Shown in pieces: positions 28,341 to 38,900 of a stretch of 64,000 nucleotides of DNA (within the stretch, counting starts at the first letter, position 1; every line of letters begins with the position of its first letter). The DNA is from Candidatus Hydrogenedentota bacterium. Lineage in GTDB: Bacteria; Hydrogenedentota; Hydrogenedentia; Hydrogenedentales; SLHB01. Both the position numbers and the translations under genes were made by a program. Location of the stretch: positions 160,001 to 224,000 of the forward strand of contig CAXXTH010000019.1 of the NCBI GenBank assembly GCA_963668025.2, read 5' to 3'. The notes under the pieces are model-generated. The model worked only from the letters and a program-made list of their open reading frames with translations. It was not told where the DNA came from and ran no database searches.

Positions 28341-29951
28341 ATGATGGCCAACAAAATACCGTGCATCTGGTTTCCTGCCGCATTAATCGTGCTGTATACC
28401 TCCATTGCTTGCGCCACGCCATTGGACGATTACGTGGCCGCGCCGGATTCGAGCTATGCCTATTCTCTCAACAGCGTCATATCTGGAACCGGCTACACGG
28501 GCTATGTCTATCACATGGCTTCGCAACGGTGGCGTGATACCCCGTCCGAGATTGACCGTAATCTGTGGGAGCATTGGCTGGTGATGGCCGTACCTGCGGT
28601 CGTCAGCCATCCCACAACCGCCTTGCTATTTATAGATGGCGGTTCTAATAGTGGAAATGCGCCGTCGGCAATAGAGGCCATGCTGGCGCAAATCGCTACA
28701 GCAACGCAGTCGATTGTCGTGGACCTGCGGATGATTCCCAACCAGCCGTTGGTCTTCCCGGATGAAACGGATCCCCGATATGTTACGGCTGGCCGTAAAG
28801 AAGATGAGATTACGGCATATGCGTGGGACAAGTTTCTGCACACGGGCGACGCAACGTGGGTTCCCCGCCTGCCGATGACCAAAGCGGTCGTACGTGCAAT
28901 GGACGCCATCCAGGCCGAACATCCAGGCATTACGAGCTTTGTCGTCGCGGGAGGCTCCAAGCGCGGTTGGACGGCTTGGACGACGGCCGCCGTCGATCCT
29001 CGAGTAATGGCCATCGTTCCGATGTCCATCGACATACTCAACATCAAAGCCTCGATGCAGCACCACTGGGACGCATATGGATTCTGGTCCAGCGCGCTCA
29101 GCGATTATGTGGACATGGGCGTCCTGGATTGGCTGAACACGCCCCAATTCGATGCGTTGATGGCCATCGAGGATCCGTATTCGTATCGAGACCGAATGAC
29201 CATGCCCAAGTATATCATGAACGCCACCGGCGACCAGTTCTTCCTGCCCGATTCCTCCCAGTTTTATTTCGAGGAGCTGCCGGGCGAAAAATACTTGAGG
29301 TATACCCCCAATACCGATCATGGGCAGAATGCGGAAGCCGTTCTGAATTTTCTGGCGTATTACACGGCGTTGTTGAATGGCGTGGCGCGTCCCGAATTCA
29401 CGTGGACAAAGGAAGCGGACGGCTCGCTACGCGTGCAAACCACCACATCGCCCAGCGAGGTCAACTTGTGGCAAGCCACCAATCCCCATGCACGCGATTT
29501 CCGAGTCGAAACCATCGGCGAAGCGTGGACCCGTTCATCCCTCACTGATCAGGGAGGCGGGCTTTATATCGGGCAGGTTCCTGAGCCTAGCGAGGGCTGG
29601 ACAGCGTTCATGGTGGAACTGGTGTATCCCAGCGGCAGTATTTACCCGTTGAAGTTCACGACGGAGGTCAGCGTCGTTCCCGATATTCTGCCATATAAAG
29701 ATTCCGATGGCGATGAAATACTCGATGGCGAAGAGGGAACAGCCGACCCCGATGGCGACGGGACGCCTAATTACCTGGACCTCGATTCCGATGATGACGG
29801 CCTGAGCGACCATTCGGAACGGTTCACCTGGAACACCGATCCATACGATCCGCTGCATCCCAATGCTTTTACGCTCCACGCTTGGCCCCTCCTGCTACTA
29901 TTGCTTCTGGCAGCCTGGAAGATGCAGCGAAGGCAGATTTCTTTGCAATAA
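28341..29951 (+). CDS. PqaA-like (PhoPQ-activated pathogenicity-related) alpha/beta hydrolase with acidic DxDGD repeats and a C-terminal TM anchor
   Basis: GGSKRGWT nucleophile loop, GDQFFLPD and PNTDH motifs; DSDGD/DPDGDG repeats. Confidence 0.85.
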   Translation: MMANKIPCIWFPAALIVLYTSIACATPLDDYVAAPDSSYAYSLNSVISGTGYTGYVYHMASQRWRDTPSEIDRNLWEHWLVMAVPAVVSHPTTALLFIDGGSNSGNAPSAIEAMLAQIATATQSIVVDLRMIPNQPLVFPDETDPRYVTAGRKEDEITAYAWDKFLHTGDATWVPRLPMTKAVVRAMDAIQAEHPGITSFVVAGGSKRGWTAWTTAAVDPRVMAIVPMSIDILNIKASMQHHWDAYGFWSSALSDYVDMGVLDWLNTPQFDALMAIEDPYSYRDRMTMPKYIMNATGDQFFLPDSSQFYFEELPGEKYLRYTPNTDHGQNAEAVLNFLAYYTALLNGVARPEFTWTKEADGSLRVQTTTSPSEVNLWQATNPHARDFRVETIGEAWTRSSLTDQGGGLYIGQVPEPSEGWTAFMVELVYPSGSIYPLKFTTEVSVVPDILPYKDSDGDEILDGEEGTADPDGDGTPNYLDLDSDDDGLSDHSERFTWNTDPYDPLHPNAFTLHAWPLLLLLLLAAWKMQRRQISLQ

Positions 29952-30135
29952 CATAGCCGTATGGTGGGGCTGGCCCCACCGTTCGAAGCTGAAAGCGTTA
30001 CCGGTAGGGCAAGCCCCACACTACTTTTCTTGGCGCGGTTTGTTGAGCAGGAGTTTGAGGCTGCACAGCAGCATCTCCCGCCCCTTCGACGAACCATAAT
30101 GTGTAGGATAGCCGTGAAGGCTATCAATCATCTAG

Positions 30136-32152
30136 CCCATTTTCCGCAGTAAGGCCGTCTTTTTTCTGGTTTTGAGCGTCTTTTCGGCTGTAAGTCCTTT
30201 GTTGGTCTTGCGTGCTGGTAGGATTTCCGTGTAGTGGCGAAAACCCCCTTGTTACGCGGGCCAGCGCGTGAGATCATGAGTGCCAGTTGGGAGGCTCTGG
30301 CATCGTGTTTCTCAAGCCGAATCGGAAGACCTTCGATGGCGTGACCTACGAGTATTGGTCGCTCGTGGAGTCGGTGCGCACGGCGAATGGGCCGCGCCAG
30401 CGGACGGTGGCCACCATCGGGAAGCTGCCGGGCCTGGATGAGGAAGCGCGGGTGGGCTGGGAGCACATCGGGGAGATCCTCGATGGCCGGGTGCATCAGC
30501 GGGACTTGCTCGAAGTCGAGCCGGAACCGCCGGCGTGGGCGACGGTGGACACGTCTCGGGTGCGGGTGGAACGGTTACACCGTTTCGGCGAGGTCTACTT
30601 GGGGCTGGCGTTGTGGCGGCGGCTTAAGCTGGATACGTTTTTCGACGAAGCCATGGCGCCAGGCCGCGAGGAGATCCCGTGGGGCGTAATGGCTTGTATC
30701 CTCACGTTGGCGCGGTTCTGCGCGCCGTCGTCGGAGTTGCACATCGCCGAGTCGTGGTATGGCAAGACGGCCTTGGAGGATATCCTCGACGTGGCGCCGG
30801 AGAAGGTGAATGAGGACCGTCTGTACCGGGCTCTCGACGCGCTGCTGCCCCACAAGGACGCGCTCTTCGGTCACTTCCAGAAGGTCTATGGCGAGCTGTT
30901 TGGCGCCACCTTCGACATCCTGCTCTACGACATCACGTCGACGTACTTCGAGGGGCAGGCGGGGGACAACCCTCAAGCGAAACGAGGCTACTCCCGGGAC
31001 AAGCGGCCCGATTGCGTGCAGGTCTGCATTGCGCTGGTGGCCACGCCGGAGGGACTTCCCCTGGCCTACGAGGTCTTCGACGGCAACCGCAGGGACGTGA
31101 CCACGGTGGAGGAGATGGTGGAGGCCATGCGCACGAAGTACGGCCACGAGCGCCGCACGTGGGTCATGGACCGCGGCATGGTGAGCGAGGACAACCTCGA
31201 GATGCTGCGCGAGGCCAAGGCGAGCTATCTCGTGGGCACGCCCAAAAGCATGCTCAAACAGTTCGAGCGTGACCTCTTGGAACAGGGTTGGGAGCAAGTG
31301 GAGCCCGAGGTGGAGGTGAAACTCCGCCCCTCGCCCGAGGACGAAGACGAGACCTTCGTGCTCTGTCGCTCGCGCGGCCGCATCGAAAAAGAACGGGCCA
31401 TACGCGAGAAACAGCGCGTGAAGCTCGAGGCTGAACTCAACCGGCTCAAAGCGCGCATCGACGCCGGCACACGCGCCCTGCGCGACCGCGGCGCCGCTGA
31501 ACGCCACGTGGGCCGGTGCTTCCAGAAGTACTCCCGCGCCGCCCGCTTCTTCCAAGTGGCCATCCGCGAACAAGACGACCCCAAACACAAAAGCGGCAAG
31601 CGCCTCGCCATCGCCATCACCCAAGACCCCGCCCATCGCGAATGGGCCGAACTTACCGACGGCTGCTACCTGCTGCGCACCAACCTCCAGAACCACGACC
31701 CAAAGCAACTCTGGAAAGCCTACATCGGCCTCACGCAGATCGAGGACAGCTTTCGCATCAGCAAGCACGACCTCGGCCTCAGGCCCATCTTCCATCACAG
31801 AGAACGCCGGACCCAAGCACACATCCTCGTGTGCTTCCTTGCCCTCGTGATGTGGCGGACTCTCCAGCAATGGATGGACGGCGCCGGCCTCGGCGCCGCG
31901 CCCCGAAAACTCCTCGAAGAGATGGCCGAAGTCCGTTCCTTGGACGTGGTCTTGCCTACCGGCCAAGGCACAGAGTTACGCCTGCGCACCGTCAGCAAGC
32001 CCGAGCAGCGCCTCGCGCTCCTACTCCAGAAACTCGACCTTCCCCTGCCCAATAAACCAAAGTCGATCCCAAATGTAGTGGCGAAAACCCGCCGAAATCT
32101 CCAATTTTCCTAGAAAACGCCAACCTCCTTTGCCTCAACTGCGGAAAATGGG
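30136..32152 (+). mobile_element. IS1634-family insertion sequence
   Basis: TIRs CCCATTTTCCGCAGT; CTAG duplicated at 30132-30135 and 32153-32156. Confidence 0.9.
30287..32113 (+). CDS. IS1634-family transposase (probable start GTG ~30305)
   Basis: LYDITSTYFEG, GYSRDKRPD, VMDRGM and IEDSFRISKHDLGLRPIFH motifs. Confidence 0.93.
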   Translation: MGGSGIVFLKPNRKTFDGVTYEYWSLVESVRTANGPRQRTVATIGKLPGLDEEARVGWEHIGEILDGRVHQRDLLEVEPEPPAWATVDTSRVRVERLHRFGEVYLGLALWRRLKLDTFFDEAMAPGREEIPWGVMACILTLARFCAPSSELHIAESWYGKTALEDILDVAPEKVNEDRLYRALDALLPHKDALFGHFQKVYGELFGATFDILLYDITSTYFEGQAGDNPQAKRGYSRDKRPDCVQVCIALVATPEGLPLAYEVFDGNRRDVTTVEEMVEAMRTKYGHERRTWVMDRGMVSEDNLEMLREAKASYLVGTPKSMLKQFERDLLEQGWEQVEPEVEVKLRPSPEDEDETFVLCRSRGRIEKERAIREKQRVKLEAELNRLKARIDAGTRALRDRGAAERHVGRCFQKYSRAARFFQVAIREQDDPKHKSGKRLAIAITQDPAHREWAELTDGCYLLRTNLQNHDPKQLWKAYIGLTQIEDSFRISKHDLGLRPIFHHRERRTQAHILVCFLALVMWRTLQQWMDGAGLGAAPRKLLEEMAEVRSLDVVLPTGQGTELRLRTVSKPEQRLALLLQKLDLPLPNKPKSIPNVVAKTRRNLQFS

Positions 32153-32215
32153 CTAGGTGACGAGGTAATGAAGATGTTTAGGGTGAGGTGAAGTAGATCC
32201 TGAAGGGGCAAAACT

Positions 32216-33166
32216 ATGTATAGTAGGTTACTTCATTCATCTGACCTTCCAGAATGTCTTTGGCAACCCGAGCAGGACTGCCTACATATTCCAGAAGTGA
32301 TTTCGAAAATCTACGAACAAATGCTGGAGGAGAAGGAATTACTAGAACTTGCTCGTAACGACACTTCAACGGATGGACCTGTTGGTGGTGTAACAGAAGA
32401 CGCTACAAACAAACACTTCGCAACTAGATTCTCGGCATCCGTCGCTAGAACGCAATTGACTATTCTTGATCCGAAAGAAGACTTGCGGAATGTCTCAGAT
32501 TTGTTCATCCAAGCTTTTTCTGGTGGTACTATAAGCTTATTAGACATCCCATGTGGAGCAGGTGCGGCTTCAGCTTGTTTGTTAGGGACGATTGCAGCAC
32601 TACGAGAAGCGCATGTTGTCCCGCGCCAGCCACTAATAGTCAAGTTGCTCTGCGGCGATCTCTCCTGGTATGCACGAGACTACGCTGAAAACTTGATAGC
32701 AGGCATGCAGAATACTCTTAGGTGCCAAGCGATATTCGTTGAGGCACGCTTTACTCCGTGGAATGTGCTCGATCCCTTCAGCACAAGCGGTCTGCTCTAT
32801 GATTGGATGGAATTCGCACGTGGATGCAGAGAGTATTTCATCGTAACTGCAAATTTTTCTGGATTCCTCCAGAAAGAGAATAAGCTTAATGAGGCTAAAC
32901 CTCAGCTGTCAGAGGTTTTTCGATGGGCTGAGAAACGCCGGTCTACTGTGATGTGGCTTGAACCCAAAACAAACGAAGCCGTAGAAGGACTATGGCCCCG
33001 TGTTTTCAAATTGTTTAAAGGTATTCTTCCACCCCTTTTTAGATCAGACCGAAAAGACGACAAATGCCTTCTGTCTTCAGAATGTCGATACAGGCACCCA
33101 ATAATTAGTAATTGTACTCCCAGGGTAAATCTGACCCTAACACGTCTAGAAGTAAATGAAAAATGA
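32216..33166 (+). CDS. Class I SAM-dependent methyltransferase-like protein, partner of the RT
   Basis: Motif I LLDIPCGAGAAS, acidic motif II LCGDLS, ANFSG and WLEPKT; stop overlaps the RT start (ATGA). Confidence 0.7.
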   Translation: MYSRLLHSSDLPECLWQPEQDCLHIPEVISKIYEQMLEEKELLELARNDTSTDGPVGGVTEDATNKHFATRFSASVARTQLTILDPKEDLRNVSDLFIQAFSGGTISLLDIPCGAGAASACLLGTIAALREAHVVPRQPLIVKLLCGDLSWYARDYAENLIAGMQNTLRCQAIFVEARFTPWNVLDPFSTSGLLYDWMEFARGCREYFIVTANFSGFLQKENKLNEAKPQLSEVFRWAEKRRSTVMWLEPKTNEAVEGLWPRVFKLFKGILPPLFRSDRKDDKCLLSSECRYRHPIISNCTPRVNLTLTRLEVNEK

Positions 33167-34881
33167 AAACTGCACCTGAAACAATAGCTGTTAAAGCAGT
33201 CAACCAATATCGTCGAAGAGACATAATCGGTTACTTAGGATTGCGACTTTATCTAGACAATAGTTGTGCCCAACGAAACCTCTGGAGTCACAACGTAGCA
33301 TGCCGTATCACTCTGCACAGCCCATCGCTCTACCATTCGTCATCACATTTCAAAGAACAAGATGCTGATACAGGAGACATCAGGCATAGGCGAATATGCG
33401 TCCCTACTCCAAACGAGATACTTGCTGAGACTGCCTTGCTTGTAGAGCTGTCCTCCACATCTTGTCTTAAGAATACTAGTAGCTATAGTTACAAGCTTGC
33501 AGATGCGAGAGATCGTGTTGGTATTTTTGCCCCTTATTTTCTGGGATTTAGAGAACGGCACCGCGCAATAGCTCAAGCTGCGAAATCCCATAATGGCAAC
33601 GTCGTTCTATATACGGATATCCACCGTTATTATCCATCAATACGTGCTGAACTCGCACGGAAAGTATGGTCAGAAGTAGCCAAATCTGTGAACTTGTCTC
33701 AACGGTTCAGGGATCTAGGAAACAAACTTCTGGACAACCAATCAACGGCTTGTTCAAGAGATGAAAATGGACTTCTAACAGGTCCCATGTTTTCTCATTT
33801 CATAGCCAATCGGGTACTTTTCGATGTCGACAAAAGAATGGAAGAATTGCTTCCAAACGGTTATTTTCGTTATGTGGATGATATTGCATTAGTAGGCCCT
33901 AAGAATCAGGTTCTAGACGCGGAGAAGCAACTAGAAAAACTTTTATCCGATTTGGGCCTATCTATGAACAAGGATAAGCGGCTTCTTATTTCGTCTTCTC
34001 ATTGGCTTGAAGGAGAACATGATTTTTCAGGCGATCCTAATAAGGTGTCCTGGAAGACTTTTATTGGGAAAATGAAACAGTTGCTCATCGCTCGCCCAAA
34101 ATTGACAAATTCAATTACCAATCTTCTAACAGATAATGGTTTCCGTCTAAAACCTTTAGATTACTCCGATGTCGTTAAGGAGCAACAGTATCAAAGTCGC
34201 TTGTTACTTCTGCTGAAAAATAATTGGTTTCGAGAATCTGTTCGAAATACCACTCCAGAGCTTATTTGTAAGGAGGGACTTGAATTACGCGCCCGATATC
34301 AAGAGAGTTTATTTGTGAATGCAAATGGAGCGGACCAGCTTGAAGGATATAACCGAAAACGAAGAATCTACCAGCTTCGACGATACGCCTCTCGCCTGAT
34401 TTATTTGGCTGATCCAGGAGAACTACGAAACATCGTACAAGCTTTGGAACAGATACCAGAAATGAGGCTTTTCACAGAAATATTCCGCGCTATCGATTCA
34501 CACGACGCAAGCCGTGTTGTCCAGTACGGCGCAAATGCTGCCCATGGTCTTGCTCAGGCTCTTCTTTCGTCTAAAATGAGTGTTTCCTGTTCGACACAAA
34601 ACTGGACAGACGCAGCTCGACAGGCATATTCAATCTTGGTTGCACACGGACTGTGTGTTGAAGGTAATAAGCCTGAAAATCCATCTGATATGGAATGTTT
34701 CTGCGATTGGGATAAATACTCCCATGATATTAGGGAAACGCCCGATAGCTATTTCAACGAGATATCTTGTTTACATGGTTTTGGCTCTAGGCGAAGGCAT
34801 GAAGACTGTCTGCTAAGGGCATTTGATGCAAACGAGGATATTATTAATGACATAGAGAGCGTACTAGAGCAGTCATATTAG
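33163..34881 (+). CDS. Reverse transcriptase, UG/Abi-like (non-retron, non-intron), with long C-terminal helical region
   Basis: YTDIHRYYPSI, GLLTGPMFSHFIAN, YFRYVDDI and LSMNKDK motifs; 572 aa. Confidence 0.9.
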   Translation: MKTAPETIAVKAVNQYRRRDIIGYLGLRLYLDNSCAQRNLWSHNVACRITLHSPSLYHSSSHFKEQDADTGDIRHRRICVPTPNEILAETALLVELSSTSCLKNTSSYSYKLADARDRVGIFAPYFLGFRERHRAIAQAAKSHNGNVVLYTDIHRYYPSIRAELARKVWSEVAKSVNLSQRFRDLGNKLLDNQSTACSRDENGLLTGPMFSHFIANRVLFDVDKRMEELLPNGYFRYVDDIALVGPKNQVLDAEKQLEKLLSDLGLSMNKDKRLLISSSHWLEGEHDFSGDPNKVSWKTFIGKMKQLLIARPKLTNSITNLLTDNGFRLKPLDYSDVVKEQQYQSRLLLLLKNNWFRESVRNTTPELICKEGLELRARYQESLFVNANGADQLEGYNRKRRIYQLRRYASRLIYLADPGELRNIVQALEQIPEMRLFTEIFRAIDSHDASRVVQYGANAAHGLAQALLSSKMSVSCSTQNWTDAARQAYSILVAHGLCVEGNKPENPSDMECFCDWDKYSHDIRETPDSYFNEISCLHGFGSRRRHEDCLLRAFDANEDIINDIESVLEQSY

Positions 34882-35294
34882 ATATTTTGTACTAGAGATT
34901 CTCATACAGCCATATGCCGAATCTTAGAACCACTTTCTCCGAGAAAAAACGGCAAACCTTGACGACAACAGCATCGGACACCATAGCGTTTGAGTTTTTC
35001 TTCAGCCGCTTAGGGTTTCTTGTAAAAATTGGAGATTGGATTCGGTTTTGACGAGAAGTGTTAATGGAGTCTCGACTATGCCCCAATCCTTCTCTCTGGC
35101 GTTGAATGGAGATGCTTAGGCAGCGTCAGTAAATAAGCTTTTCATTAACTATTTTATAAGGCGCTTGATCACGGCGCTTCTCGATGATCATTGCTAACCT
35201 TATTTGTGTATGCCGCCTTAGTTCAAAGCCGACAGCATTACCCGGAGCATCTGTTCGAGCTTGTCCTGGGGCGAACTATCGGCGGTTTCCATCG

Positions 35295-35657
35295 TCACAA
35301 CCTTTCCATGGCCTTTGCGGCTGCCTCGGCGGAGATTTCACCACGTTCCAGTTTATTCAGAATGGCGCGCTTGGCTTCCTCGTTCTTATGGAGCTTCTGA
35401 TAGGATTCGATGATATGGTCCAAACGGTTTCGGATGGCGACGTATCCCAAGCCGGATTCTTCGGCCAGCGCCTTGATGCTGAAACCGGCCAAGAGGTAAC
35501 GTTCGAGAAATTCCAGGTCTTCACTGGGCATGCGGGAAAACTGTGTCAGCCGGAACCGCCCCCGGATTTCCATCTCGCATTGGTCGCAATACATCGCCAC
35601 GGTGCGCATGGAACCGCCGCAATAGGGGCACTCTAGTTTTTTTCGTGTGGGTTCCAT
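35295..35657 (-). CDS. DUF2089-like zinc-ribbon/HTH protein
   Basis: CPYCGG...CDQC, SIKALAEESGLGYVAIRNRLD and C-terminal ILNKLERGEISAEAA. Confidence 0.8.
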   Translation of the reverse strand: MEPTRKKLECPYCGGSMRTVAMYCDQCEMEIRGRFRLTQFSRMPSEDLEFLERYLLAGFSIKALAEESGLGYVAIRNRLDHIIESYQKLHKNEEAKRAILNKLERGEISAEAAAKAMERL

Positions 35658-35663
35658 GAAAAA

Positions 35664-35692
35664 AGTATATACCAAACCGGATATTATGTCAA
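35664..35692 (-). promoter_or_regulatory. Sigma70 promoter, probably leaderless
   Basis: TTGACA-17-TATACT ending 6 nt before ATG 35657. Confidence 0.7.
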
Positions 35693-35941
35693 ATATATTT
35701 TTGGTATTTTGATAATAACCAAAATTTATTTAAAAACCGAGACGGCTTTTTCATGCCACTGAACGAAAAAAACAGGCTTCCATCCCGAAAGAAAATAGGA
35801 AAGCGCCGGCACTCCACGAAAACACAATACTCTTGCTCTTCAGATGGCCAGCCTGTTGCTCCTTTTTAAAATGCAATGCAACGGGAACTGTCCATCGTGG
35901 TATTATAGAGGCACGGCGCAGGTTAGCCAGGCACTAGGGCA

Positions 35942-38900
35942 ATGCAACCGAGTGGGGTACGCACCATGTTTTCCAGGATTCTCTCCCGCAATCGTCTTTG
36001 GTCCGTTCTATCATTGGCGGCCATTTGCTTATGCGCCGCTCTTGCTTTGCTGGAGGCGAAACGGCCTTCTTACGCCCAGGAGGCTTCCCCCGCTCCGCCT
36101 GTGGAAGCGGCTGCTCCAGCTCCAGCCCCAACGCCTCCTCAAGGCGGCCCGTACTTGAATGTAGTAGGCGCGGTGCCGTTACCGGGGGATTGGCTTACGA
36201 ACAAGATCATCGTGTTTTTCGACCAACCCATCCAGGCGCCCGGCGGGCCTTCATCCGTGCTGCTCGGTCCGGGCCTGCCCGCGGAATGTCTCATCGGAAG
36301 CAATTACGTGCGGGTTCAGTCGTCCCGCATACCGTCGGATCGTGTTGTGCAACTTGATCTCAGCGGCGTGCAATCAGCGGATGGCAAGCCCATCAATCCC
36401 GAACAGAAGATACAAACGTTTGCCGCCTTTGTGTTTGCCCCGCAACAGGTATTTTTTGTCCAGCGTCAAAATGGCCAGATCGAGATGGGTATGGCTTTTC
36501 CTACGGAGGTTAGAGCAGATGAGGTGCAAGCCCATCTCCGCGCTATGGACGCCAAGGAGCAGCCGGTTCCATTCACCGTGTCACCCGGCAAAGACGCAAA
36601 AATCGTACAAATCTCCGTGCCTGAAACCACGGCATGGCCGCTGCAATTGATTGTCAGCGCAGGCCTCAAGGACGCCTCGGGGTTCATAGCGCTCGCGGAT
36701 GAACACACTTTTTCGTATATGCCTTCCACGGATTTGGCCGTGTCCAAAGTCGAATGGGGAACCTTCAGCCCAGAACGCCAAGATCTCCACATCTATTTTT
36801 CGTCCCCGGTCTTGCCGGACGCCTTGAAAGAGCATTTGTCTATCACCGATGCCAATAGTGGCGAAGAAGTGGGATATGAACTCGATAACACGGAAGCATC
36901 GAGCGATCTGGTGATTGGCGTACATGTATCGGGCCAGGCGCAAGCGCAGATCACGGTAAATATCTCGCAAGGGCTCGAAAGCACGGACGGGATGGCCTTG
37001 GGTGCGGATTATACCGCGAATCTTGCAGGCCCCGAGAACCGATTAGCGATCCAGAACTATTGGTGGAATTATCCCGAGCGTGAAGGGCTGGCGTTGTATC
37101 TCCAGCTCAGCCAGCGCGTGGAGGCAAACCAGCTTAGGCAATATATAGCGGTCGAACCGGCCATCGAAAACCTGCGCGTCGAGTCCGAAGGGTACAATTC
37201 CTACATGGTGTATGGCGATTGGAAGCCGCAACAGGCCTACACCATCACCGTCAAGGCCGGGCTGCCGTATTGGGGCGGCCAAACCCTCGATTCCGACCAA
37301 AAGGCGGCTATCAAAACGGAACGCCTGCCCGCTTATATGGGTTTCGGGTATAAAGACCAATATTACTTCCCCCGGAAAGCGGGCATGCCGCTAGACATGG
37401 AAAGCAGGGGCGTTTCCAAAGTGAAGCTTACCCTCTACCGGCTGTTCCCCTCGAATCTGCCTGCTGCCGTGGAAGATATTAATAGTGGTAATGGAAGCTG
37501 GCGGTTCACTACCCAGTTTTGCGAGCAATTAGCGCAGACCGAGATGCCGGTGGCGAATGATCCCAGTTCGCTCGTAAAGACTCCCATTGATATCAGCGCG
37601 ATGAATCTCAATAACACACGCGGGGTGTTCTGCCTCGAAGCAGAGGGTAAAGTCAGCCAGTCCGGTGAAGAAGATGAAGGCTCGCGTTCCGGCACGAAGA
37701 TCATCGTATGGACGGATATCGGCGTGCTGGCCCACTGGCAGAACCAGGAGTTGGCGCTTTTTGCCCATGACCTGTATTCGCTGGCGCCCATCGCCCGCGC
37801 GAAGGTGACAGTGTATTCCGCAAAGAACCAGGTATTAGCCGAATGGACGACCGACGAGCAGGGCATGGCCTATCTTTCCGGCTTCAATCCCTCGCTGGGT
37901 GCGCCCGCCTTGGCCGTGGTCGAACACGAACAGGATTTCACTTTCCTTCCGCTACAACACAACGCCGATGACCCCGTGGCCTACGACGAAGGGCAGCCGT
38001 TCTATGATGCAAAAGGCTACGACGCTTTCATCTATGCCGACCGAGAATTGTATCGTCCCGGCGAAACAGCCCACGTGCATTGGGTCGTACGCCAACGCTA
38101 CGGCGACGCCGTGGGGGCGCTCCCCTTGCAGATGCGCATTCTCAAGCCCAATGGCCGCAAACTCCTGGAACAGGCCGTCATGCTCTCGGACACGGGCACG
38201 GGCGGTTTCGATTTCGTCTCGCAGCGCGCCTACCCGACAGGCAAATATACAGCGCAGCTTCTCTTGCCCGGGAAAGACAATCCCATCGGCAGCTATACGT
38301 TCAGCCTAGAAGATTTCGTGCCCAACCGCATCAAGGTGAAGCTCAACGCCTCCGAAGCGCCGCTCCGAGCCGGGCAGCCCGAGCAGGTGAGCCTCAACGC
38401 CCAGCACCTCTTCGGCGCGCCTGCGGCGGACCGCAAGTGCGAACTCAAGATCGCCTTGCAGCGCAAAGGCTTTAAGTCAAAACAGTGGGAAGCGTTCCGC
38501 TTTGACAACGATGCTGACTTTAAACCGGACATCGTGGACCTCGGCCAGCAGACCACTGATGCCGAAGGCAACGCAACCTTCGATTTCACCTACCAAGCCC
38601 CGGCGGAGGCCACCAGCCCGCTGATGGCGTCCTTAGTGGGGCGCGTGTTCGAGTTGGGCGGGCGCTCCGTAGGCGACGCCGCCCAGCGGGTGCTGTTCCC
38701 GTCGGACATCGCCCTCGGTATAAACGCAGCCGCAGCCGCACAAGGGCAAGGCGTGGATGTGCAGGTCGTGGCCATCCAGCCCGACGAATCGCCAGCGGCG
38801 CTTGACAAGGTGACGGTGCGCCTCGAAAAACAGTCGTGGAACTATTATGTCCGGCGCTATTACGGCCACCACGAGTCGAATTGGTCGGAAAGCTTCGAGA

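Follow-up and report, generated by a model that had tools for sequence, protein, structure and literature searches.

What could a reverse transcriptase (RT) gain from being produced together with a methyltransferase (MTase)? This question is raised by two overlapping genes in a 64,000-nucleotide (nt) stretch of a Candidatus Hydrogenedentota bacterium genome (contig CAXXTH010000019.1, positions 160,001 to 224,000 of the forward strand; assembly GCA_963668025.2), which is referred to here as the window and in whose positions all coordinates are given. Gene 1 (32216..33166, + strand) is an open reading frame (ORF) of 316 amino acids (aa) for a UG36-associated class I MTase dependent on S-adenosylmethionine (SAM), and gene 2 (33163..34881, + strand) is an ORF of 572 aa for the UG36 RT itself. 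We assign a probability of about 0.6 to the view that the pair is a horizontally acquired two-gene UG36 system whose products would form an anti-phage RT-MTase complex resembling the Class 1 UG/Abi enzymes. The details of this proposal are less sure than its frame.

Identity and linkage of the two genes

Gene 2 matched the PADLOC model RT_UG36 from residue 5 to residue 571 (profile positions 2-555 of 557) with an E value of 9.7e-161 and 534.4 bits; the runner-up PADLOC models were RT_UG35 (69.3 bits), RT_UG34 (60 bits) and Drt6 (57 bits). RVT_1 (residues 123-276) was the sole Pfam family to reach threshold. The NCBIfam models for retrons, Drt2-4 and group II elements all scored far under their cut-offs. 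An identity as a retron RT was rejected because the NAxxH and VTG signatures are both absent from the sequence, retron_St85_RT scored 53 bits (cut-off 235) and no Rfam family matched. An identity as a group II intron RT or maturase was rejected on the score of TIGR04416 (37 bits, cut-off 300) and on the lack of any intron RNA family in 29900-36200. The RT motifs were located at residues 14 (NQYRRRD), 152 (DIH), 203 (GLLTGP) and 237-240 (YVDD). The catalytic core, from D152 of motif A to Y237-V-D-D240 of motif C, is encoded at 33616..33882 (+ strand), and D152, Y237, V238, D239, D240 and K272 were each kept in at least 97% of 123 distinct RTs. Gene 2 is a full-length UG36 member, and nothing sets it outside that group.

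An earlier reading, made from the sequence alone, had described an AT-rich two-gene unit with an ATGA overlap and translational coupling, and had called gene 2 an RT of the UG/Abi type with the motifs listed above, the N-terminal one included, and without NAxxH and VTG. Each of these statements held. Its presentation of the locus as an uncharacterized module was overrated, since the UG36 family is already catalogued, and its hedge that surveys might have noted a methylase neighbor for a UG clade proved apt. In its account of the group, Mestre et al. 2022 (PMC9226505) defines UG36 by such an association, as an unclassified UG/Abi group found with methylase-domain genes (clusters 169 and 2186). 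The same account likens UG36 to UG25 and UG35, whose methylase is fused at the RT N-terminus, and predicts a defensive role from individual loci; UG36 is not among the systems whose testing that account describes.

Conservation of the pair was assessed in two sets of loci. The first came from a scan of one genome per species (80 loci, many phyla) and the second from a scan of metagenomes (80 loci, all at ≤41% identity). Note that the sets share identical loci (L006/L094, L032/L144, L039/L168 and L048/L141) and are not fully independent. When ORFs were searched with a profile of the MTase, this gene was found directly upstream of the RT, on the same strand, at 76 of the 80 genome loci. The misses were three loci without upstream DNA (L030, L045 and L071) and one with a split RT (L067). 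The MTase was directly upstream at 70 of the 80 metagenome loci as well, eight others having no upstream DNA and two being N-terminally truncated RT matches. Taken over all related loci that have upstream DNA, the arrangement was present in 146 of 149, and the conserved pairing that the sequence-only reading had proposed as a check was thereby confirmed.

The stop codon of gene 1 and the start codon of gene 2 share the 4-nt sequence ATGA (33163..33166, + strand). Where both genes were present as a single intact copy (68 genome loci), the same 4-nt overlap recurred in 44, any overlap was seen in 54, and the gap was ≤11 nt in every case. When 1758 ORFs flanking the pair were clustered, no family occurred at more than 8 of 80 loci, so the UG36 system consists of two genes. 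Across 109 distinct pairs, pairwise MTase and RT distances correlated with r = 0.882 (the highest value in 500 permutations was 0.156), and the mean divergences of the two proteins were equal (0.62 and 0.63). Such a correlation of sequence distances shows that the two were inherited together; strictly speaking, it does not show co-evolution. Full-length homologues are numerous for both proteins and include relatives at 57% identity. The cassette has a GC content of 0.437 versus 0.561 for the whole window, and 5 of 307 sliding windows of cassette length were as low. Given the many homologues, the conserved pairing and the recurrent overlap, the gene pair is more than a product of chance.

A search for fused forms of the MTase family among longer proteins found none, which is weak evidence. 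One apparent MTase-RT fusion, a 991-codon frame in L035 (4753-7725), was rejected because the reading frame changes about 30 residues before the end of the MTase; this single frame is a sequencing error or a recent mutation and not a domain fusion. A 663-aa protein (P0056) may be a similar case.

Predicted structures of the MTase, the RT and their complex

The AlphaFold2 model of gene 1, based on an alignment of 33 homologues, had a predicted local distance difference test score (pLDDT) of 89.4 and a predicted template modeling score (pTM) of 0.90. It contains a seven-stranded sheet of Rossmann type (strands 104-110, 140-148, 173-181, 206-212, 244-250, 285-293 and 303-311). Foldseek searches of the PDB returned methyltransferases, with Dot1L as the best match (1.1e-05, template modeling (TM) score 0.32-0.39), followed by GRAS domains, glycine N-methyltransferase (GNMT), BCDIN3D and others, all at 7-15% identity. 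No family of Pfam (E ≤1) or NCBIfam matched, and a profile search of PDB sequences gave nothing below E 0.5. Language-model neighbors in a protein atlas pointed to generic class I MTase clusters. The sole PADLOC match was to the fused N-terminal part of RT_UG35 (E 1.8e-05; residues 99-177 on profile positions 80-152 of 938). A search of 1.84 billion sequences yielded 424 cluster representatives of the family at E ≤0.001, and those listed are almost all of about 300-330 aa.

MTase motifs were found at residues 110 (DIPCGAG), 147 (GD), 212 (ANF) and 248 (LEP). Conservation was scored across 121 distinct partners of UG36 RTs. In motif I, the glycine-rich SAM-binding loop (residues 110-117, DIPCGAGA; 32543..32566, + strand), D110, P112, G114, G116 and A117 were kept in 98-100%, and the acidic position after strand 2 (residue 148) was D or E in all 121. 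The motif IV region, which follows strand β4 (residues 213-217, NFSGF; 32852..32866, + strand), contains N213 (121/121) and F214 (116/121). W182, W247 and E249 were likewise invariant, W247-x-E249-P250 was kept in 96-100%, and an N-terminal block of G57, G58, S75 and R78 was kept in 120. Because the SAM loop and these other residues are so strictly kept, gene 1 is a divergent class I SAM-dependent MTase that is almost certainly active as an enzyme. Its substrate class cannot be transferred from relatives. The class I assignment and motifs given by the sequence-only reading were thus borne out, together with the lack of a DNA-MTase motif of (D/N/S)PP(Y/F/W) type; its hint of likeness to Rsm22 drew no Pfam or NCBIfam match.

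In the AlphaFold2 model of the RT (pLDDT 88.1), three helices at the N-terminus precede a fingers-palm core, and the part spanning residues 297-569 is entirely helical. This agrees with the helical C-terminus anticipated earlier. The C-terminal domain (residues 297-572; 34051..34878, + strand) has about 16 helices. The best Foldseek matches of the model were DRT6 (2.8e-09), AbiK (8.2e-09) and DRT4 (3.3e-08), and then Abi-P2 and AbiA. These Class 1 UG/Abi structures aligned over 541-666 columns; DRT9, group II, DRT2 and retron RTs aligned over 340-470. DRT6 was also the best match among PDB sequences (9e-14). In the portions of PMC12783706 that deal with these enzymes, DRT4 and DRT6 are reported to make single-stranded DNA (ssDNA) without a template or nucleic-acid primer, the product being covalently attached to the protein. 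The priming residues given there are Tyr125 in the palm of DRT4, and Tyr44 of AbiK and Tyr61 of Abi-P2 in fingers loops.

A candidate for the corresponding residue of UG36 was sought among conserved tyrosines. Outside the catalytic motifs the best-kept ones are Y110 (122 of the 123 RTs) and Y24 (120 of 123). Y110 and the adjacent S109 (at least 97%) are encoded at 33487..33492 (+ strand) and lie in the fingers within a loop (residues 98-124) that is coil in the AlphaFold2 model. Y125, kept in 117 sequences, is a less likely candidate, being F in 5 of the 123. From conservation we infer that Tyr110 is the best candidate for protein priming in the UG36 RT.

Co-folding of the two proteins with alignments gave an interface score (ipSAE) of 0.91 in each of three runs (best of three controls, 0.00). 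Contacts agreed by at least 89%, and the partner pLDDT was at least 83. For calibration, the mark used for a predicted complex is reached by 58 of 80 solved complexes and by 2 of 110 mismatched pairs, and the model therefore supports binding of the MTase to the RT without proving it. Predicted contacts involve residues 29-53, 83-84 and 523-540 of the RT and residues 3-10, 95-105, 133-141, 169-174, 205-206 and 242 of the MTase. The lowest-error pairs center on MTase residues 133-139. They belong to a loop (133-141, VPRQPL; 32612..32638, + strand) that forms the middle of the predicted RT interface and in which P136 (100%), R137 (91%), P139 (95%) and L140 (98%) are conserved. The MTase contact residues sit just before strands 1 to 5, and with the standard class I topology this would make the interface face away from the SAM pocket. 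The active site of the MTase would accordingly be left open and not buried against the RT.

Genomic setting and local history

The sequence-only reading had taken the pair for an anti-phage system and had suggested a check for enrichment in defense islands; related loci sit among genes of restriction-modification (R-M) and DISARM systems. UG36 pairs often lie inside a type I R-M or DISARM operon and are read in its direction, with positions after hsdS or before hsdR; in many of these cases the stop codon of one gene overlaps the start codon of the next. The order DrmMI - (DUF2326-like) - MTase - RT - ... - DrmA was observed in L006, L059, L066 and L151, and DrmMI is also upstream of the pair in L019, L022, L032, L039, L095 and L130. 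The order HsdM - HsdS - MTase - RT was observed in L040, L107 and L159, with variants in L023, L077, L101 and L106. In L001, the stop codon of a PF01555 DNA methylase gene overlaps the MTase start (again coupled by ATGA). In total, R-M or DISARM genes were detected at at least 28 of 160 loci (19 of the 80 genome loci); these counts come from BLAST with seven single queries, are a lower bound and have no background rate. At L019 (2965-4938), L066 (1694-3691), L151 (1-1968), L137 and L138, a DUF2326-like gene of 650 aa either separates DrmMI from the UG36 MTase or immediately precedes the latter.

Directly downstream of the RT, at eight loci (L027, 7739-8416; L028, L031, L037, L121, L122, L126 and L158), there is a co-directional gene for a DEDDh exonuclease of RNase T type, at a distance of -36 to +22 nt. 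Four of these loci are from cyanobacterial genomes, and a three-gene variant (MTase, RT and DEDDh exonuclease) is present in a cyanobacterial clade. The DRT4 and DRT6 products are described, in the relevant parts of two reports (PMC12783706; 10.64898/2026.10.27.754916), as being degraded by a host 3'-5' exonuclease until a phage protein resembling single-stranded DNA-binding protein (SSB) protects them. A DEDDh gene would fit an ssDNA product of UG36, because the products of DRT4 and DRT6 are controlled by a host exonuclease. At three further loci, a gene of 500 aa with an NYN domain (RNase type) follows the RT directly (L106, 4754-6259; L115 and L116); in L116 its stop-to-stop frame overlaps the RT end, and in the other two this frame starts 17 nt past the RT stop codon.

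The distribution of the system is patchy. It was found in 2 of 135 genomes of the phylum, one of them the present genome, and a further 53 genomes of the family lacked it. No UG36 RT was detected in a plasmid collection (E ≤1e-20) or a phage collection (E ≤1e-10). The closest relative among genomes is L001, with 46% RT identity, and it is the one locus whose flanks resemble the window. The similarity concerns the final 110 nt of L001's PF01555 methylase gene and is present in two pieces, a left piece at 30036..30135 (+ strand), where 58 of 76 nt in 30061-30133 are identical to the gene end, and a right piece at 32153..32191 (+ strand), where 25 of 32 nt are identical in 32153-32184. Translations match in shifting frames (LHSSISRPFDEP-stop versus LHSAVSRPFDKP; RIAVKAINHL versus RIAVKVINHL; and LGDEVMKMFRVR-stop, the reading of the right piece, versus LGDEVMKVFRV-stop of L001). 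The cassette therefore brought along the tail of a methylase gene of R-M type, which decayed afterwards, and the remnant marks the left edge of the acquired DNA.

The two pieces are separated by an insertion sequence (IS) at 30131..32158 (+ strand), which carries a 608-aa DDE_Tnp_1 transposase gene (30287-32113, by Pfam) and ends about 60 nt upstream of gene 1. Its termini are inverted repeats of 23 nt, and CTAG is present at each junction. Its ends were set using three more copies in the same genome (contigs C21 and C17). Since these copies are 99-100% identical, the insertion is recent. Contigs of three runs had the same IS junctions, and no IS-free joint was found among them, a result that does not bear on expression. 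Read-through from the co-directional transposase gene into the pair is possible.

The neighbors of the pair in the window are housekeeping or mobile genes, and encode a PhoPQ-related protein, an alpha-2-macroglobulin with a PBP1C-type protein, a UbiA, a glycosyltransferase and transposases. A pair of hairpins resembling repetitive extragenic palindromic (REP) elements lies just after the PhoPQ-related gene (29959-30024), and contigs C9 and C10 of this genome carry similar stretches (60-75 nt, 75-83% identity). On the other side of the cassette there is a DUF2089 zinc-ribbon/helix-turn-helix gene (35295-35675, - strand; GC about 0.47-0.49) with a near-consensus promoter-like site (TTGACA-17-TATACT, 35692-35664); this gene was not seen adjoining UG36 pairs at other loci. 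The genome contains about 17 more RT-like frames, mostly of 544 aa, in which the match is confined to the palm region (39 bits). They are found on, for example, contigs C10 (G000:C10:217924-218313), C17, C18, C22 and C23, and probably represent a multi-copy element of group II intron type. A different RT on C12 (26222-26845, 77 bits, L082) may be another UG/Abi-type gene.

An RNA partner was sought on both sides of the pair. No Rfam family matched 29900-36200 at E ≤1. When 117 upstream and 106 downstream flanks of related loci were compared, similarity was seen between close kin or through a shared neighboring gene and in no other case. The gene-free stretch of 413 nt after the RT (34882-35294) gave no sign of a noncoding RNA (ncRNA), having no Rfam match, a folding z-score of -0.28 against shuffled sequences, no match among the 106 downstream flanks and no blastx match. 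A structured leader or ncRNA upstream of gene 1 was rejected as well, the sole flank similarity being the methylase-gene end shared with L001. At many loci, just a few bases separate the pair from the genes on either side. Note that an RNA conserved in structure alone would escape the Rfam, flank and folding tests.

Proposed mechanism, alternatives and known systems

We propose that the MTase and RT are made together by translational coupling and would form a stable heterocomplex, in which the underside of the Rossmann fold of the MTase docks on the N-terminal helices and the C-terminal helical domain of the RT and the SAM face stays free. The RT would start DNA synthesis on one of its own residues, Tyr110 being favored, and would produce ssDNA without an RNA template, in the manner of DRT6, DRT4 and AbiK. 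This ssDNA may serve as an infection-sensing or toxic intermediate of a defense by abortive infection. The MTase would act in cis on the cargo of the RT, the most likely acceptor being nascent RT-linked DNA and a less likely one the RT itself. The module as a whole would then provide a second line of defense beside R-M or DISARM.

Several observations weigh against this proposal. The main points against DNA as the acceptor are the fold matches of gene 1 and its motif IV. The nearest folds of gene 1 are MTases of proteins, small molecules and RNA (Dot1L, GNMT and BCDIN3D) and not DNA MTases; Dam ranks 45th among its fold matches, with a probability of 0.47. The (D/N/S)PP(Y/F/W) form of motif IV is absent from gene 1, and comparison by hhalign with the DNA methylases that neighbor UG36 pairs was not significant (probabilities of 4% for HsdM, 1.4% for DrmMI and 0.5% for N6_N4). 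A kinship with those methylases is thus not supported, and membership in the DNA amino-methyltransferases (N6-adenine or N4-cytosine) was rejected on the missing motif and these comparisons. The complex model places the interface opposite the predicted SAM pocket, so that the active site is not positioned at the polymerase, and interface residues kept at ≥90% (4 of 28 in the MTase and 4 of 30 in the RT) show no clear excess over the remainder. For the RT, TM-scores to the Class 1 structures are just 0.30-0.45, which makes the kinship distant, and when three DRT4-like proteins were compared by hhalign with the aligned UG36 RTs, the match spanned residues 147-277 only and did not reach the priming site. 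In its section on the group, PMC9226505 leaves UG36 unclassified, with no evidence of an alphaRep domain. At the present locus, no defense genes flank the pair within the window, the IS separates it from what once lay upstream, and the stretch from the IS end to gene 1 yielded no sigma-70-like site. No experimental study of any UG36 member was found in the literature; full-text searches on UG36, on UG35 with methyltransferase, on UG25 and on DRT11-13 gave no later work on UG36 (DRT11 is listed as UG5).

The fold neighbors of gene 1 would suit a different division of labor, following the logic of retrons, in which the MTase is a trans-acting effector or toxin that modifies host or phage RNA or protein and the RT with its DNA product restrains or triggers it. 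Its neighbors by fold and language model are Dot1L, BCDIN3D, FtsJ and TTHA1280, and MTS-type clusters give one lead; the complex model leaves the SAM face free, the catalytic residues of the MTase are strictly kept, and in other RT systems covered by the relevant part of PMC9226505 the fused or adjacent partner is the effector. We consider this arrangement unlikely, given that the MTase fold matches are weak (TM 0.3-0.4) and that the MTase never occurred without the RT in the loci examined, diverging in step with it as a subunit would. To our knowledge, no abortive-infection or toxin-antitoxin system uses a methyltransferase as its effector. The state of the present copy suggests something else again, namely a silent passenger that lost its promoter through truncation of the ancestral operon and the IS insertion and is now without function. 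Of the ancestral upstream gene, a decayed 3' tail is all that is left, the IS lies 60 nt before gene 1, no promoter-like site was found from the IS end to gene 1, and the window holds no defense neighbors. Both frames are nevertheless intact with every invariant residue kept, the insertion is recent, and the transposase gene is co-directional, so that read-through may occur; loss of function is accordingly rated as quite unlikely.

A role of the MTase as a sensor was also considered, in which this subunit gauges SAM, and destruction of SAM by a phage, or a block of R-M or DISARM, releases DNA synthesis by the RT. Such a guard would explain why pairs are found repeatedly and co-directionally within type I R-M and DISARM operons, why the window retains the tail of a DNA methylase gene and why SAM-binding residues are invariant. 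N213 and residues outside the SAM site (G57, G58, S75, R78, W247 and E249) are equally invariant, however, which fits catalysis better, and 132 of the 160 loci have no R-M gene in the fetched flanks (by the BLAST count given above, in which R-M genes are a lower bound). We regard the guard as improbable. The same low standing was given to a Class 2-like system in which the RT copies a short ncRNA template, as DRT2, DRT9 and DRT10 do, and the MTase modifies the RNA or the cDNA. It would draw on the unclassified status of UG36 in the pertinent part of PMC9226505, on DRT9 and DRT2 being among the structural matches and on the 413-nt gene-free stretch after the RT. This stretch has no Rfam match and an unremarkable folding z-score, the flanks of the window match no other locus except in the methylase-gene remnant, and flank similarity elsewhere tracks neighboring genes or kinship, with the pair often abutting genes on both sides.

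The interest of the locus lies in its mechanism and not in the existence of the pair, which is catalogued. Defense-associated RTs make diverse DNA (de novo genes, random ssDNA, homopolymers and protein-templated repeats), and UG36, UG35 and UG25 are the branch of RTs joined to a methyltransferase. It is conceivable, though we would not bet on it, that UG36 is the first RT immune system to need a methyl donor, with a SAM-loaded MTase subunit, docked on a protein-priming RT that needs no template, that either marks nascent RT-linked ssDNA, so that a chemically modified DNA with a signaling or toxic role results, or reads the supply of SAM, the module then firing when a phage disarms the R-M or DISARM system whose operon often houses it. 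A methylated RT product or an RT switch that gauges SAM would, if true, be a new principle; should the MTase prove to be just an accessory, the locus would be one more ordinary representative of a family already catalogued. The question is directly testable now, with an obligate and probably bound pair, strict selection on both active sites and no apparent RNA template.

Of the known systems, UG36 as described in the survey (PMC9226505; PADLOC RT_UG36) has the same RT end to end and, in that description, the same methylase-domain partner gene. UG35 and UG25 have the same domain order, methylase and then RT, but as fusions in the published account, whereas here there are two separate proteins. 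In that account UG35 is linked to a UvrD-like helicase and UG25 to DUF1848, neither of which is a constant neighbor at UG36 loci. DRT6 (UG12), DRT4 (UG15), AbiK, Abi-P2 and AbiA are like the UG36 model in having an RT followed by a helical C-terminal domain; unlike UG36, they act without a methyltransferase. These Class 1 enzymes build ssDNA on a protein primer and copy no template, a mode of action that UG36 may share. Dot1L-type and other class I SAM MTases share with gene 1 the seven-stranded Rossmann fold, the glycine-rich SAM loop and the acidic residue after strand 2, but Dot1L-type enzymes differ in being 12-13% identical to it, with TM-scores of 0.32-0.39 and no PDB or Pfam sequence match. 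The gene for PrrC, an anticodon nuclease that provides abortive infection as a second line of defense, sits inside the type Ic EcoprrI R-M operon; it is likewise co-directional between R-M genes, although the proteins are unrelated to those of UG36. To what was known of the UG36 group, the present analysis adds the absence of a detectable ncRNA, a near-universal upstream partner with 4-nt coupling, frequent embedding in R-M and DISARM operons and, from the models, a predicted heterocomplex and a helical C-terminal domain that aligns with the Class 1 enzymes.

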